Shown: positions 9,093 through 15,197, counted from the first letter of the stretch. The stretch is 33,122 bases of DNA from Eubacteriales bacterium (GCA_045646995.1 JAZRLT010000055.1:1-33122); one strand, 5' to 3'. Numbers and translations: made by a program. The notes: a model not told the origin generated them from the sequence alone.

Positions 9093-11888
9093 ATGAGAAA
9101 TCTTAAATCATTTATGCCAAGAAGCCTCGTTTCGATGATTGCGCTTCTTCTTGCGGTAGTTTTCTGTATGTCGGCGCTCGTTTCTTGCGATAACGGCGGA
9201 GATGAAAGCAGTAACACCTCCGGTTCGGAAGCATCAGGCGAAAAGGCTACCTACACCGTAAGCGTTAAATCTAACGGCGGTGTTCCTCTTTCCGGTCTTG
9301 ATATCTATATCTATAAGGGCGCGGAATTGAAGGATATGAAGGAATTCTCCAAAACCAACGAAAACGGCGAGATAACCTTCAGTCTTCCCAAGAGCGACGA
9401 TTACTTCATCGTTGTTTCGGGCGCACCCAAGGGCTACAAGGTTGAGAAAAGCTATGGATTTGTAGGTACCTCCTCGGCGATAGTTCTTACCTCTTCGCTC
9501 GTTACCGGAGAGGATATCTCGACCGCTCAGCTCGGAATCGGTGACGTTATGTATGATTTCACCGTTATGAATTCCGAAGGTCAGGAAGTAAAGCTTTCCG
9601 AGGTGTTCAAAACTAAAAAGCTCGTCGTTCTTAACTTCTGGTATACTACTTGTAGCTGGTGTCTCGAGGAATTCCCCCTTATGGAGGAGCTTTATCGCGA
9701 CTATAAGGAAGACGTTGAAATTATCGCGCTCGACCCGCTCGACGACGCTAATGCCGTCAAGAGCTTCCGCGCTCAGCACGGTCTTTCCTTCCCGATGGCG
9801 GCTTGTCCTTCCTCTTGGTCGGCTGTGTTCGGCGTTCAGGGTTATCCTACCTCGGTATTTATCGACCGCTACGGTACTATCTGTATCGTTGAATCGGGCG
9901 CTATCACAAGCAAGCGTCCTTGGATAAGCGCGTTTGACCATTTCACCGCTGATAATTACAAGCAAAAGATCTGTACTAACGGTATCGGAGACCTTGTTTC
10001 TCAGGTTAAGCCTACCTATACTATGGATACTACCGAAAATATCTCCGCTCTTATCAATAACGGCGATATTGAGGTTACCTACCGTGCGGAGACCGATTCC
10101 GATACTGCCGAATTCACTTGGCCCTTTATTGCGGGCGAAAAGCTCGGCGAGAACTGTATCTACGCTTCCAATAAGGGTATCGACGGTTCCTACGCTATTA
10201 TTTACGCTGACGTGACTCTTAAAAAGGGTCAGGCAGTAGGATTCGATTATCTCGTTTCCTCTGAATACGGCTGCGACATAATGTACGTAATCGTTGATGA
10301 CGACGATATCTACCAGATCTCGGGCGTTTCCGATAAGGAGGAATGGAAGTCCTGCTATCCCTGCGTAGCCGAAGAGGATGGCACCTACGAGATCGCGCTC
10401 TGCTTCCTTAAAGATGAGGACGGTACCGAGGGCGACGACACCGTGTATATCAAGAATATGCGTGTCGTTGACGAAAAGGACATCGATACCGATTCCTATT
10501 TGCCCCGTTATGCGGCTACGAGCGAGGATGGATTCGAGTTCGATTACGTTGACGTAGTATTCAACGAAAAGGACGGATATTACCACGTCGGCTCGGCTAA
10601 CGGACCTCTTCTTCTCGCTGACCTTATGGGATATACCCAGTTCAATGAAGAAAAATCCGTTTTCGATATCGTTACTGCGGGAGACGCTGATAAGGGCGGA
10701 GTAAGCCTTTATAATAAGGTTGCCGAAGGCGGCTTGGGAATGGTTGATTACTTCTCCTATGCTTCCAATTCTCGACTTAACGGTGTTTGTACCGTAAATA
10801 AAGAGCTCGGCGAAATGCTAAAGCAGGTTGCTGAGGTTGCAGGCTTTGAGGATGATTCCAACGAATGGCTTAAGATATGTAAATATTTCAAGGCATACGG
10901 CAAGGGCAATACTCAGCTTGAGGACCCGATAAAGGGACTTGCTACCTTCAGCGCGTATGAAACTAAGCTCGGCAAGAACGTTTCTACTAACTATTTCCAA
11001 TACGATAGAGCGATCATCCCGAGAGGTATGTTCTCTCGCTTCACTCCTTCTAAGTCGGGCGTTTACCGTTTCAGCTCCAAGAGCGATTATGCCGAGGGCA
11101 TAGATGCTTGGATCTTTAATGAAAAGGGCGAAATAATTTACACCTATGAGCTTTCCGAAAGAATGTGGAGCGATTCGAATAACTGTTCCATGGTATACTA
11201 TATGGAAGCAGGTAAGTCCTATTATATTAATATGGCGTTCTGGGACGTTTATGCTACCGGTAGAATCAACTATGACGTTGAATATCTTGGAGCTACCTAT
11301 AAGCTCTTCCGTTCGGCTTCTCCCGGATACTTTACCTATGATTCCGACGCTACCGGAGAGGTAATGTACGACGTTATAAGCGGCGGTATAACCCCTGTAT
11401 TGAAGGATGGCAAGTATTACGACTCCGAGGACGGAAGCCTTATTTACGCTGACTTTACCGGTGTTACCAACCTCTTTGGACATTCTATCGTTGAAATGAT
11501 AGAAATGGGCGGCTTCGACTTCAGCAAGTCTGAAACCGACGGTGAGGTTCTCGCATATCTCAAACAGAATGATAACGACGTAGAAAAAACCAAGGAATAC
11601 CTCAAAAAGCTTTGGGGCGAGGAATACGACGCTAACGCCGACATCTATCAGCTCGAAGACGTTTTTTCCGGAAGATATCACGGAAAGGGCGAAGATCTTA
11701 CCGAAGAAATTCGCGCTTATAAGAGCAAGATGGATAAGTCCTCTACCGAAAAGGACGGATGTGTTGTTGTCGATGAGCGCTTGGTTGAAATACTCCAAAA
11801 GCTTATGGATAAATATACCTTTGAGGGTGTTGAAAACTCTTGGCTCAAGGTGTGCTACTACTATGACTACCTCGGACCGGCTAAATAA
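9093..11888 (+). CDS. Multidomain lipoprotein (931 aa): prealbumin-like beta-sandwich, TlpA/ResA-like thioredoxin fold (CSWC), jelly-roll-like domain, PPC-like domain and two copies of the uncharacterised DGYYH/W-x3-C-Y module
   Basis: RBS AAAGGAG is present and the lipobox is LVSC. The beta-sandwich is YTVSVKSNGGVPLSGLDIYIYKG...GAPKGYKVE. The thioredoxin fold is LVVLNFWYTTCSWCLEEFP...GVQGYPTSVFIDRYG, with the CxxC codons at 9651-9662. Module copies lie at about 10572-10890 and 11410-11870. Confidence 0.9.
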   Translation: MRNLKSFMPRSLVSMIALLLAVVFCMSALVSCDNGGDESSNTSGSEASGEKATYTVSVKSNGGVPLSGLDIYIYKGAELKDMKEFSKTNENGEITFSLPKSDDYFIVVSGAPKGYKVEKSYGFVGTSSAIVLTSSLVTGEDISTAQLGIGDVMYDFTVMNSEGQEVKLSEVFKTKKLVVLNFWYTTCSWCLEEFPLMEELYRDYKEDVEIIALDPLDDANAVKSFRAQHGLSFPMAACPSSWSAVFGVQGYPTSVFIDRYGTICIVESGAITSKRPWISAFDHFTADNYKQKICTNGIGDLVSQVKPTYTMDTTENISALINNGDIEVTYRAETDSDTAEFTWPFIAGEKLGENCIYASNKGIDGSYAIIYADVTLKKGQAVGFDYLVSSEYGCDIMYVIVDDDDIYQISGVSDKEEWKSCYPCVAEEDGTYEIALCFLKDEDGTEGDDTVYIKNMRVVDEKDIDTDSYLPRYAATSEDGFEFDYVDVVFNEKDGYYHVGSANGPLLLADLMGYTQFNEEKSVFDIVTAGDADKGGVSLYNKVAEGGLGMVDYFSYASNSRLNGVCTVNKELGEMLKQVAEVAGFEDDSNEWLKICKYFKAYGKGNTQLEDPIKGLATFSAYETKLGKNVSTNYFQYDRAIIPRGMFSRFTPSKSGVYRFSSKSDYAEGIDAWIFNEKGEIIYTYELSERMWSDSNNCSMVYYMEAGKSYYINMAFWDVYATGRINYDVEYLGATYKLFRSASPGYFTYDSDATGEVMYDVISGGITPVLKDGKYYDSEDGSLIYADFTGVTNLFGHSIVEMIEMGGFDFSKSETDGEVLAYLKQNDNDVEKTKEYLKKLWGEEYDANADIYQLEDVFSGRYHGKGEDLTEEIRAYKSKMDKSSTEKDGCVVVDERLVEILQKLMDKYTFEGVENSWLKVCYYYDYLGPAK

Positions 11889-11917
11889 GCCGATATTTTG
11901 AAGAAAGAAGGGTAGTA

Positions 11918-14038: not shown

Positions 14039-14057
14039 ATATAAGGGGTATCTTAAA

Positions 14058-15197
14058 ATGAAAAGGATTTTCTTTGTTTTATTTGCAGTTGCTGTTGTTA
14101 TTGGACTTTGCGCTTGTAATGATTCAAATACGGATACTCCATCTATCGAGGATGTTTCGGTAAACGATATATCAAATGACGATACTGTGCCCGAATCCTC
14201 TTGCGCTTTTGAATCTTCTTCGGATGTCGAAGATTCTTCCGTTTTTGAAGAATCTATCGTTTCGGAAAACGATGAATCCGATGATTCTGTAAATGAAGAA
14301 TCGGATATATCGGAGGAGGCTTCCTTCGATGAAGAAAGCGAAAGCGAAGAATCATTCGAGGCGAACGATACGTCCGAATCCGAATCCTCTGCCGAAGACG
14401 TGTCTAAACCCGAACCCAAGCCCGAACCCAAGCCCGAGCCCGAGCCCGAGCCCGAGCCCGATGACGAGGACGTTGAAATGATCGAATATACCATATCGGT
14501 TAGGTCGCTTGGCGGTATTGGTCTTTCCGGGCTTGATATCAATATATACAAGGGCTCGGACCTTAAGGATCTAAAGATGTCTACCCAAATTACCTTGTTT
14601 GGTAGCGTGAGTGTGAATCTTCCTAAAAGCGATGACTATTACGTCGTTGTTTCAGGTGCACCTAAGGGGTATAAGGTCGAAAAAAGCTATCGCTTCGTCG
14701 GTCAGACCGCGGCTATTTCGCTCGAATCATCTCTCGTGAAGGGAGAGGATATCACGGCGACAACCCTCGGGGTAGGTGACGTTATGTATGATTTCGCCGT
14801 TATTGATGCCGACGGGAAAGAGGTAAAGCTTTCCGAGGTCCTTAAGAAAAAGAAATTGGTTGTACTTAACTATTGGTATACTTCTTGCCATTGGTGTATC
14901 GAGGAATTTTATGTTATCCAGGAATTGTATGGCGACTATAAGGACGATATCGAGTTTATCGCGATAAATCCGATTAATGACGCGGATGCGGTTAAGGATT
15001 TTCGTGATCGTTACGGTTATTCCTTCCCGATGGCTTCCTGCGACTACTCGTGGGCTTCCGTGTTTGGTGTTACAGGTTATCCGACCTCGGTGTTTATCGA
15101 TAGATACGGCACCATTGTCGATGTCGAAAGGGGAGCTATAATCACTACGGCACCTTGGGTATACGATTTCGAGTACTACACCGGTGACAATTATTAA
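14058..15197 (+). CDS. Lipoprotein: long acidic linker, prealbumin-like beta-sandwich and TlpA/ResA-like thioredoxin fold (CHWC); paralog of the N-terminal third of the 931-aa protein
   Basis: RBS AAGGGG is present and the lipobox is LCAC. A Ser/Asp/Glu-rich linker ends in a KPEP/EP repeat. The beta-sandwich is YTISVRSLGGIGLSGLDINIYKG...GAPKGYKVE. The thioredoxin fold is LVVLNYWYTSCHWCIEEF...GVTGYPTSVFIDRYG, with the CxxC codons at 14886-14897. Confidence 0.9.
   Translation: MKRIFFVLFAVAVVIGLCACNDSNTDTPSIEDVSVNDISNDDTVPESSCAFESSSDVEDSSVFEESIVSENDESDDSVNEESDISEEASFDEESESEESFEANDTSESESSAEDVSKPEPKPEPKPEPEPEPEPDDEDVEMIEYTISVRSLGGIGLSGLDINIYKGSDLKDLKMSTQITLFGSVSVNLPKSDDYYVVVSGAPKGYKVEKSYRFVGQTAAISLESSLVKGEDITATTLGVGDVMYDFAVIDADGKEVKLSEVLKKKKLVVLNYWYTSCHWCIEEFYVIQELYGDYKDDIEFIAINPINDADAVKDFRDRYGYSFPMASCDYSWASVFGVTGYPTSVFIDRYGTIVDVERGAIITTAPWVYDFEYYTGDNY
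14406..14459 (+). repeat. In-frame tandem repeat encoding (KPEP)2-KP-(EP)4 in the lipoprotein linker
   Basis: AAACCCGAACCC AAGCCCGAACCC AAGCCC is followed by GAGCCC x4. These are 12-nt then 6-nt units read directly from the sequence. Confidence 0.9.

Follow-up and report, generated by a model that had tools for sequence, protein, structure and literature searches.

The three paralogous thioredoxin-fold lipoproteins treated here, named A, B and C, are encoded at positions 9,093 to 15,197 of a DNA stretch of 33,122 nucleotides from an Eubacteriales bacterium (GCA_045646995.1 JAZRLT010000055.1:1-33122), which is one complete contig and is called the window in the following. As judged from gene order in related genomes, this trio is not isolated and belongs to a conserved cluster of about 30 kb in uncultured gut Clostridia, composed of genes for a protease, an Opp-type importer and a series of lipoproteins. 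The explanation that we regard as the best overall, with a probability of roughly 0.5, is that the three proteins would be surface oxidoreductases fed by a NapH-like membrane protein and working within this protease/Opp cluster. The conserved and uncharacterised cluster, together with a candidate supplier encoded past the contig end, is a more interesting result than the trio alone.

All three genes lie on the plus strand: paralog A (931 amino acids, aa) at 9093..11888, paralog B (288 aa) at 13172..14038 and paralog C (379 aa) at 14058..15197. The active sites read from the translation are CSWC in A (9651..9662; TGTAGCTGGTGT), CGPC in B (13691..13702) and CHWC in C (14886..14897), the last being the same in the C ortholog of a close relative (locus L003). 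The blocks around the CxxC are VVLNFWYTTCSWC, VVLNFWFENCGPC and VVLNYWYTSCHWC for A, B and C, respectively, and those on the cis-Pro side are GYPTSVFIDRYG, GYPTTVVIDRYG and again GYPTSVFIDRYG. The original prediction had reported three lipobox proteins with these coordinates, dipeptides and cis-Pro blocks, all of which proved exact, and its remark that A and C share an extra Cys absent from B was confirmed by alignment (PMAACPSSW in A and PMASCDYSW in C, with PMVSANLEW instead in B). Each protein satisfies the PROSITE-type lipobox rule and has a basic n-region as judged by sequence, and is thus predicted to be extracytoplasmic via a membrane anchor. According to Pfam, and to an AlphaFold2 (AF2) model in the case of A, the order of parts is common to the three: lipobox, low-complexity linker, prealbumin/CarboxypepD_reg-like beta-sandwich and TlpA/ResA-like domain. 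In A these are the lipobox Cys32, the sandwich at residues 51-134 and the TlpA/ResA-like domain at residues 140-292, beyond which about 640 further residues are modelled by AF2 as two modules, each a jelly-roll/beta-sandwich plus a helical part. The linker of C, about 120 aa long, acidic and rich in Ser, Glu and Asp with PE/PK repeats (14130-14480), is far longer than those of A and B.

The identity of A is 63% to C (240 residues) and 36% to B, while the Pfam AhpC-TSA/Redoxin matches of the catalytic domains have E-values of 1e-15 to 2e-19; the resemblance is therefore due to homology and not to chance. When the AF2 model of A was compared by Foldseek, the best match was the ResA-type structure 4nmu_A (TM-score 0.89, root-mean-square deviation 2.1 Å, 149 columns, 36% identity), with Etrx1/2, Mycobacterium tuberculosis DsbE/DsbF and FetE at lower ranks; the full-length model gave matches in the thioredoxin domain only. 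The best solved relatives of B are also ResA structures (phmmer against PDB, 2e-16). The equivalent of Glu80 of ResA, an acidic residue located three positions past the second Cys, is conserved (CxxCxxE[FL]P), and A and C have Trp as the second dipeptide residue and have lost the usual Trp ahead of the first Cys. We considered a peroxiredoxin-like assignment and rejected it: no PxxxT/SxxC motif is present in A, B or C, the Cys occupy the place of the CxxC in thioredoxins, and the closest structures are those of ResA and not of peroxiredoxins. Because the CxxC, the cis-Pro loop and the Glu80 equivalent also go together with this, a redox thioredoxin fold is indicated, as had been supposed at the outset, and A, B and C are very probably TlpA/ResA-type extracytoplasmic thiol-disulfide oxidoreductases of predicted activity. 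Their scores do not place them in a housekeeping subfamily: 76-93 bits were obtained with NF002854 (ResA) against a cut-off of 170, and 28-44 bits with NF041202 (StoA) against a cut-off of 210, and the NCBIfam scores for TlpA and DsbE were also far under their cut-offs. The trio is thus of unusual architecture within a well-known kind of enzyme.

An important part of the analysis was to examine which of these features are stably kept among relatives. Relatives of A occur in the genomes of 330 GTDB species. From these, we retrieved 80 loci, which all come from metagenome-assembled genomes (MAGs), many of them labelled as ruminant hindgut. More than 100 full-length orthologs of A, about 70% identical, were found in MAGs labelled Ruminococcaceae, Clostridia or Oscillospiraceae. 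Both catalytic Cys are present in 120/120 A orthologs listed (CSWC 114, CTWC 6), and by alignment-based counts they are present in all aligned domains of 83 A, 79 B and 27 FUS proteins (FUS being the NapH-like/TlpA-like fusion described below), with the YPT motif conserved; the supposition that these Cys are kept in orthologs is thereby borne out. The A position in 84 loci reads CSWC in 60, CTWC in 13, CTYC in 3, CQYC in 2, CDWC in 1 and CGPC in 5, so that C[STQD][WY]C occupies 79/84 loci, and the B position in 77 loci reads CxPC in 76 (including CGPC 45 and CQPC 16) and CPFC in one. Because this contrast persists over 54-92% identity, the aromatic and the Pro dipeptides appear to be maintained by selection at the respective gene positions, and A and B, as far as such comparisons can tell, form a conserved two-enzyme set with distinct dipeptides.

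The situation of C is different. It was found only in the window and in the relative whose A is 92% identical (L003), and between these two C is only 70% identical, whereas A reaches 92% and the Opp genes 97-99.7%, which makes C the fastest-diverging gene of the comparison; C is, by this pattern, a recent and lineage-specific duplicate of the N-terminal part of A. The idea that three activities are displayed side by side is supported in part, in that distinct dipeptides are kept by position, but the conserved unit is A plus B. The question had been raised whether xWC dipeptides are rare. In the 150 representatives nearest to the A domain, taken from clusters at 50% identity, the second residue is P in 86, W in 34, Y in 19 and F in 8; aromatic dipeptides amount to about 39% and are not rare in the clade, where they cluster phylogenetically, if imperfectly. 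P-type and aromatic-type TlpA domains also occur in tandem within single proteins (P0123 and P0125). As side observations, two to six tandem TlpA-like domains per polypeptide were seen in P0153, P0230 and P0259, and many relatives are 800-2300 aa long with the TlpA-like domain at residues about 130-300, constituting a large uncharacterised architecture family.

The extra Cys of A are likewise well kept, C238 in 98%, C264 in 93% and C294 in 86% of the orthologs, compared with only about 24% of B orthologs. The third Cys shared by the xWC paralogs thus separates A and C from B locally, but it is not linked to the aromatic dipeptide across the wider family. A C238-C264 disulfide in A was considered and judged unlikely, since the positions map to opposite sheet edges of ResA. 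Two loci (L049:18791-19963 and L054:16582-17757) carry an extra A-like paralog that is devoid of both catalytic Cys (SPHG and SPSA, respectively), retains the third Cys (FPMASC and FPLATC) and has gained a Cys before the cis-Pro (RCPTT); the A position itself reads CGPC in both.

The cassette A-L2-B-(C)-L5-L6-(D7), in which L2, L5 and L6 are lipoproteins and D7 is a secreted protein, was found in nearly all of 86 annotated loci, and its surroundings fall into two arrangements. In type 1, which is that of the window, an S8 protease of about 2400 aa is followed by the lipoprotein L0, a substrate-binding protein (SBP), OppBCDF, the small protein s80 and the cassette. In type 2, FUS (about 485 aa) and a small membrane protein called SM come after the cassette and are encoded on the opposite strand, and the protease gene starts right past them. 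Both flanks are available for 46 loci; only FUS is present in 20 of these, only Opp in 15 and neither of the two in 11, and the full order protease-L0-SBP-OppBCDF-s80-cassette is seen in 15/46. FUS and the CD1871A-family protein SM lie 38-3400 bp from the cassette in 26/55 loci with enough flank, and the protease gene begins directly past the FUS/SM pair in 21 of those 26.

FUS, examined in the relatives, is a NapH/MauN-type membrane protein (Fer4_5 1.6e-14, TIGR02163 7e-21, Redoxin 8e-12) composed of, in order, four invariant CxxCP/CxxxCP motifs, two ferredoxin-type [4Fe-4S] motifs, a basic stretch, a fifth transmembrane helix and a TlpA/ResA-like domain of the pattern INFWGTWC[TG]PCV.ELPYF ... 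YPYT. This C-terminal domain is predicted, solely from hydrophobicity and the positive-inside rule, to face outward. SM belongs to the CD1871A CXXC family of membrane proteins, and its C-terminal end NICTEC[IV]GLG is nearly invariant, NICTEC being identical in 26/27 sequences. NapH-like PF12801 proteins have been described as modular transmembrane electron conduits, usually with an extracytosolic domain binding flavin mononucleotide (FMN) (PMC8238504). Our search of the literature found no description of a thioredoxin-bearing NapH-like version, of CD1871A proteins or of a CSWC system.

The original prediction had stressed that no electron donor is encoded near the trio, and this holds for the window: when its open reading frames (ORFs) of at least 150 aa and those smaller ORFs that were included were scanned with Pfam, no DsbD/CcdA, ResB/ResC or cytochrome family came up, and a heuristic screen gave no CcdA-like ORF in 86 related loci. 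The absence from the window is, however, uninformative on the genome, because the window is one entire contig, and it is to be read as a contig-end effect. The contig breaks inside the protease gene and the window begins about 6.7 kb into it, so that it cannot show FUS and SM; the supplier is probably encoded just past this end. Type 1 genomes were predicted to keep FUS/SM upstream of the 7-kb protease gene. Because the 166-aa protease fragment of the window, used as a query for homologs, returned fragments and no full-length protein, we reached the region upstream of the protease via L0 orthologs in relatives. In the closest relative, whose A is 92% identical and whose gene order is the same, the prediction was borne out: FUS (502 aa) and SM, both on the opposite strand (L087:299-2656), are followed by S8 (2407 aa), L0, SBP, OppBCDF, s80 and A, the gap between SM and the protease gene being only 73 bp. 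A second genome (L088) has the same layout through s80 and then an ABC2-type transporter, with no cassette seen after s80. A further example of a FUS/SM locus is L005:20220-22110.

We also scanned metagenomic sequences with seeds taken only from peptides of the NapH-like part, and obtained 80 loci (L089-L168). A TlpA-like gene was fused to the NapH-like gene in 37 of these and adjacent on the same strand in 31; the neighborhood was cut by a contig end in 8, and no TlpA-like gene was adjacent in 4. The partner is thus fused or adjacent in 68/72 informative loci, and this pattern of fusion and fission points to a dedicated NapH-like/TlpA-like partnership. Taking these together, we consider it somewhat more probable than otherwise that the NapH-like partner is the electron supplier, as suggested by domain content and gene linkage. 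The module, usually preceded by a CD1871A protein, is widespread in rumen and human-gut metagenomes and is apparently undescribed. In an unrelated human-gut lineage, TlpA-like, SM and NapH-like genes are located directly upstream of OppDF-SBP-OppBC and an M24 peptidase. In another unrelated lineage (L151:9923-17722), a split NapH-like and TlpA pair and an S8 subtilase autotransporter of 1852 aa are separated by about 0.8 kb, which may be a second independent protease/thioredoxin link or a coincidence.

The following scheme, in which the direction of electron flow, the order of the relay and the substrates are all putative, would combine these components. The prealbumin-like stalk would hold each of A, B and C off the membrane. 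Electrons from a cytoplasmic reductant would pass through the NapH-like protein by way of its Fe-S clusters and CxxxCP motifs, reach its fused TlpA domain (CTPC), continue to B and/or A and C, and end in disulfides of extracellular proteins or peptides, and the reduced substrates would then be cut by the S8 protease and imported by Opp. The CxxC dipeptide tunes the redox potential across the series of thioredoxin, DsbA, DsbC and PDI. B, having CxPC, would be thioredoxin-like and presumably strongly reducing, and A, having CxWC or CxYC, would presumably have a shifted potential or specificity, a shift to be expected for both A and C because of the aromatic second residue and the lost Trp before the first Cys. 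C would be a spare copy of the catalytic half of A, and the jelly-roll modules of A, which resemble domains that bind ligands, would hold a macromolecular substrate. As to substrates, disulfide-bonded proteins and peptides destined for proteolysis and uptake may be the most economical class and are our best guess; that they are specifically food or host proteins is possible, though we would not expect it. We offer tentatively, as an idea that would more often than not fail, that anaerobic gut Firmicutes have a machine to reduce, cut and import disulfide-rich proteins, with a CcdA/DsbD-independent surface reductant supplied via the NapH-like protein and its CD1871A partner and with a two-tier CxPC/CxWC enzyme set.

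Several points weigh against this explanation. The hindgut is already reducing, and the need for a dedicated reductase is accordingly weakened. Aromatic second residues, as in DsbC (CGYC) and M. tuberculosis DsbE (CPFC), typify oxidases or isomerases, so that A and C may not be reductases, and the crossing of the membrane by electrons within the NapH-like protein is a putative step. The donor genes lie outside the window, and CcdA may be encoded elsewhere in the genome. The 11 fully flanked loci noted above hold the cassette with neither Opp nor FUS nearby. Most split NapH/TlpA pairs of the metagenomes occur by themselves and in unrelated contexts, so that the module may be a general housekeeping reductant, and a true Opp link was found in only 4 metagenome loci.

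The strongest alternative, which we regard as unlikely and yet worth serious attention, is that the thioredoxin domains service the Cys-motif lipoproteins of the cluster itself, reducing, forming or isomerising their disulfides or perhaps assisting the loading of a metal or cofactor, with A and C as oxidase or isomerase and B as reductase. TlpA provides a precedent in the metal or cofactor loading of ScoI/CoxB. The candidate clients are several. L5 (143 aa; 15253..15684, plus strand), a lipoprotein with a prealbumin-like domain, has a Q.CxxxC.P motif whose two Cys are 100% conserved in 78 sequences (Cys codons within nt 15490-15504); it is a candidate redox or metal site and may be a substrate or partner of the thioredoxin domains. 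About ten Cys are conserved in the C-terminal modules of A, to which its catalytic domain is fused, and conserved Cys are also present in L2 and L0. The aromatic dipeptide is of the kind found in oxidases and isomerases, for example in M. tuberculosis DsbE, which has the TlpA fold, CPFC and a role in oxidative folding, and the A-like paralogs of L049 and L054 have lost the CxxC and kept other Cys. This alternative leaves the tight linkage to the protease and Opp unexplained; no metal-binding family was detected, and an oxidant source is not evident in a strict anaerobe.

A, L2 and D7 share a module of the pattern DG.YH..S..GP ... YP[LM]T.DL ... W..CY, of which A has two copies and L2 and D7 have one copy apiece (window 9978-11885, 11918-13168 and 16780-18700) and which belongs to no known family. 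It has conserved Cys pairs, which are unusual for secreted proteins of a strict anaerobe. When the C-terminal part of A was modelled alone, the model was poor (pLDDT 52), and its Foldseek matches to MAM, CBM and other jelly-roll binding modules (TM-score 0.4-0.6) are a weak hint; neither this part nor L2 had a Pfam, NCBIfam or PDB sequence match, and relaxed Pfam scans of L0, L2, L6, D7 and s80 gave nothing.

Less probable than the servicing of the cluster's own proteins is an Etrx-like repair of oxidatively damaged surface proteins, fed by a distant CcdA, with the protease/Opp linkage being incidental. The architecture does resemble pneumococcal Etrx1/Etrx2, which are also among the structural matches (PMC3914529). 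We rejected an Etrx-CcdA-MsrAB system proper on finding no CcdA or MsrA/B among the genes of the window or those tabulated for about 90 related loci, and the NapH-like fusion and the protease/Opp linkage are conserved across many species, making this alternative improbable.

An uptake of metals or metallophores, in which the Opp-family transporter would import a Ni, Co or Fe complex and the thioredoxin lipoproteins would act on it, as has been proposed for FetE-type thioredoxins in P19/Fet iron uptake, is at least as improbable. It could draw on a secondary NikA match of the binding protein (45 bits), a faint NikL match of the stalk domain of B, the presence of FetE among the structural matches of A, a DtxR-type Fe-dependent repressor gene about 1.2 kb downstream of the cluster (20114-20470) and a link between thioredoxins and iron uptake noted in PMC8238504. 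The NikA and NikL matches are, however, far under the cut-offs, the best match of the binding protein is the oligopeptide type Opp4A (91 bits), a 2400-aa protease heads the operon, and the repressor is a separate unit on the opposite (minus) strand. A housekeeping role of the ResA/StoA type, in cytochrome c maturation or the spore cortex, is largely refuted in spite of ResA being the top sequence and structure match and of SpoIVB, GerA and Spo0A being encoded in the window, since the scores fall far under the equivalog cut-offs, no resBC, ccdA or cytochrome gene lies in the window, the stalk domain and the 640-aa C-terminal extension set the architecture apart, and the sporulation genes are in separate units past a terminator.

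Turning to the window as a whole, the protease end through D7 forms one co-directional array on the plus strand with intergenic gaps of at most 72 bp, in the order protease C-terminus, L0, SBP_bac_5 lipoprotein, OppBCDF, s80, A, L2, B, C, L5, L6 and D7. The last 166 codons of the S8 surface protease, including its transmembrane anchor, are at 3..503 and correspond to the C-terminal end of a 2407-aa protein with Peptidase_S8, PA, fn3_5 and LRR_5 domains in the 92% relative; the full protein would be about 2400 aa. L0, a 442-aa lipoprotein with a lipobox and of no known family (554..1882), has no Pfam or NCBIfam match and always comes next after the protease gene in relatives; a perfect hairpin with a 12-bp stem is located within its coding sequence (672-699). 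The 858-aa lipoprotein at 1924..4500 is the substrate-binding protein of an Opp-type ABC transporter (SBP_bac_5 E = 9e-26); it is about 300 aa longer than a typical OppA, and its SBP_bac_5 match is in two stretches. OppB, OppC, OppD and OppF, two permeases and two ATPases with oligo_HPY by Pfam, are encoded at 4573..8796. By gene content the window fits a proteolytic system of cell-envelope protease plus Opp, the specificity for peptides being putative.

The conserved 80-aa protein s80 (8813..9055), which has a C-terminal transmembrane helix and the conserved motif YIDDGRTIADMS, travels with the Opp genes; it comes after OppF in the type 1 loci examined and is also present in L088, which is without the cassette. 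L2 (11918..13168) is a 416-aa lipoprotein with the module that D7 and the C-terminal part of A also contain, and L6 (15681..16730) is a 349-aa lipoprotein of no known family. D7 (16780..18894) is secreted and ends, after the shared module, in a type I dockerin (Dockerin_1 E = 5e-10), and at least one protein of the cluster is therefore predicted to dock on a cohesin scaffold at the cell surface. The array is closed by a bidirectional intrinsic terminator at 18914..18941 (no strand assigned), a 12-bp stem followed by a T run, which is the sole strong hairpin between genes in 1-19500, the other 12-bp hairpin being the intragenic one in L0. Beyond it, sporulation and germination genes (SpoIVB, GerA, Spo0A) flank the cluster at 18947-24175 and 31578-32348, as does the DtxR-type repressor. 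The bacterium is a spore former of the Clostridium class.

Nearly all that is understood of the extracytoplasmic thioredoxins in Firmicutes comes from CcdA-fed systems such as ResA, StoA and Etrx. The present cluster suggests another source of electrons, a NapH-like Fe-S membrane protein whose fusion and fission with TlpA-like genes is seen in hundreds of metagenomic loci, some of them from the human gut, and, if confirmed, it would represent a CcdA-independent powering of surface thiol chemistry in anaerobic Firmicutes. The natural A/B pair, with two dipeptides apparently under selection, can serve as a system for studying the influence of the dipeptide on potential and specificity. Should the linkage to the protease and the importer prove functional, the harvest of protein nitrogen by abundant uncultured Clostridia of the herbivore gut would include a reductive step.

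Comparison with known systems places these observations as follows. With ResA, TlpA and CcmG (DsbE), the trio shares the thioredoxin fold with the N-terminal and central additions of the family, a CxxC at the start of helix 1, the cis-Pro loop, the Glu80 equivalent and a membrane tether; A, B and C differ by the prealbumin-like stalk and by having no CcdA or cytochrome-maturation partners nearby, A furthermore by its approximately 640 extra residues, and A and C by the dipeptide Trp and the lost preceding Trp. Etrx1 and Etrx2 of Streptococcus pneumoniae are likewise two paralogous surface thioredoxin lipoproteins of a Firmicute with distinct active sites (PMC3914529), but that system has its own donors CcdA1/2 and its substrate MsrAB2 co-encoded, while the neighbors in the present cluster are the protease, Opp and, in relatives, the NapH-like protein. 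M. tuberculosis DsbE (CPFC) and DsbF (CPTC) are secreted paralogs of the TlpA/CcmG fold, one of which has an aromatic second residue; in an aerobe, they reportedly assist oxidative folding (PMC3853704), and they are without stalk or C-terminal modules and have another genomic context.

On the side of the supplier, FUS shares the NapH-like Cys motifs, two [4Fe-4S] motifs and an extracytosolic redox domain with the NapH-like modules PceC and NosR (PMC8238504), which as flavinylated proteins have an N-terminal FMN-binding domain, whereas FUS has instead a C-terminal TlpA domain after an extra transmembrane helix. As in DsbD, the membrane part of FUS is joined to a thioredoxin-like domain predicted to face outward, but DsbD and CcdA operate by a pure thiol-disulfide cascade and FUS would use Fe-S clusters. 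As for the cluster as a whole, the PrtP-type protease and Opp of lactic acid bacteria are alike in that a surface protease with S8, PA and fn3_5 domains is encoded with an oligopeptide ABC importer. To our knowledge, no protease plus Opp system has been described in which surface thioredoxins form a dedicated set that receives electrons from a membrane supplier of its own. A synergy between a disulfide reductase and an S8 protease, in which reduction precedes proteolysis, has been described for keratinolysis (PMC10655438).

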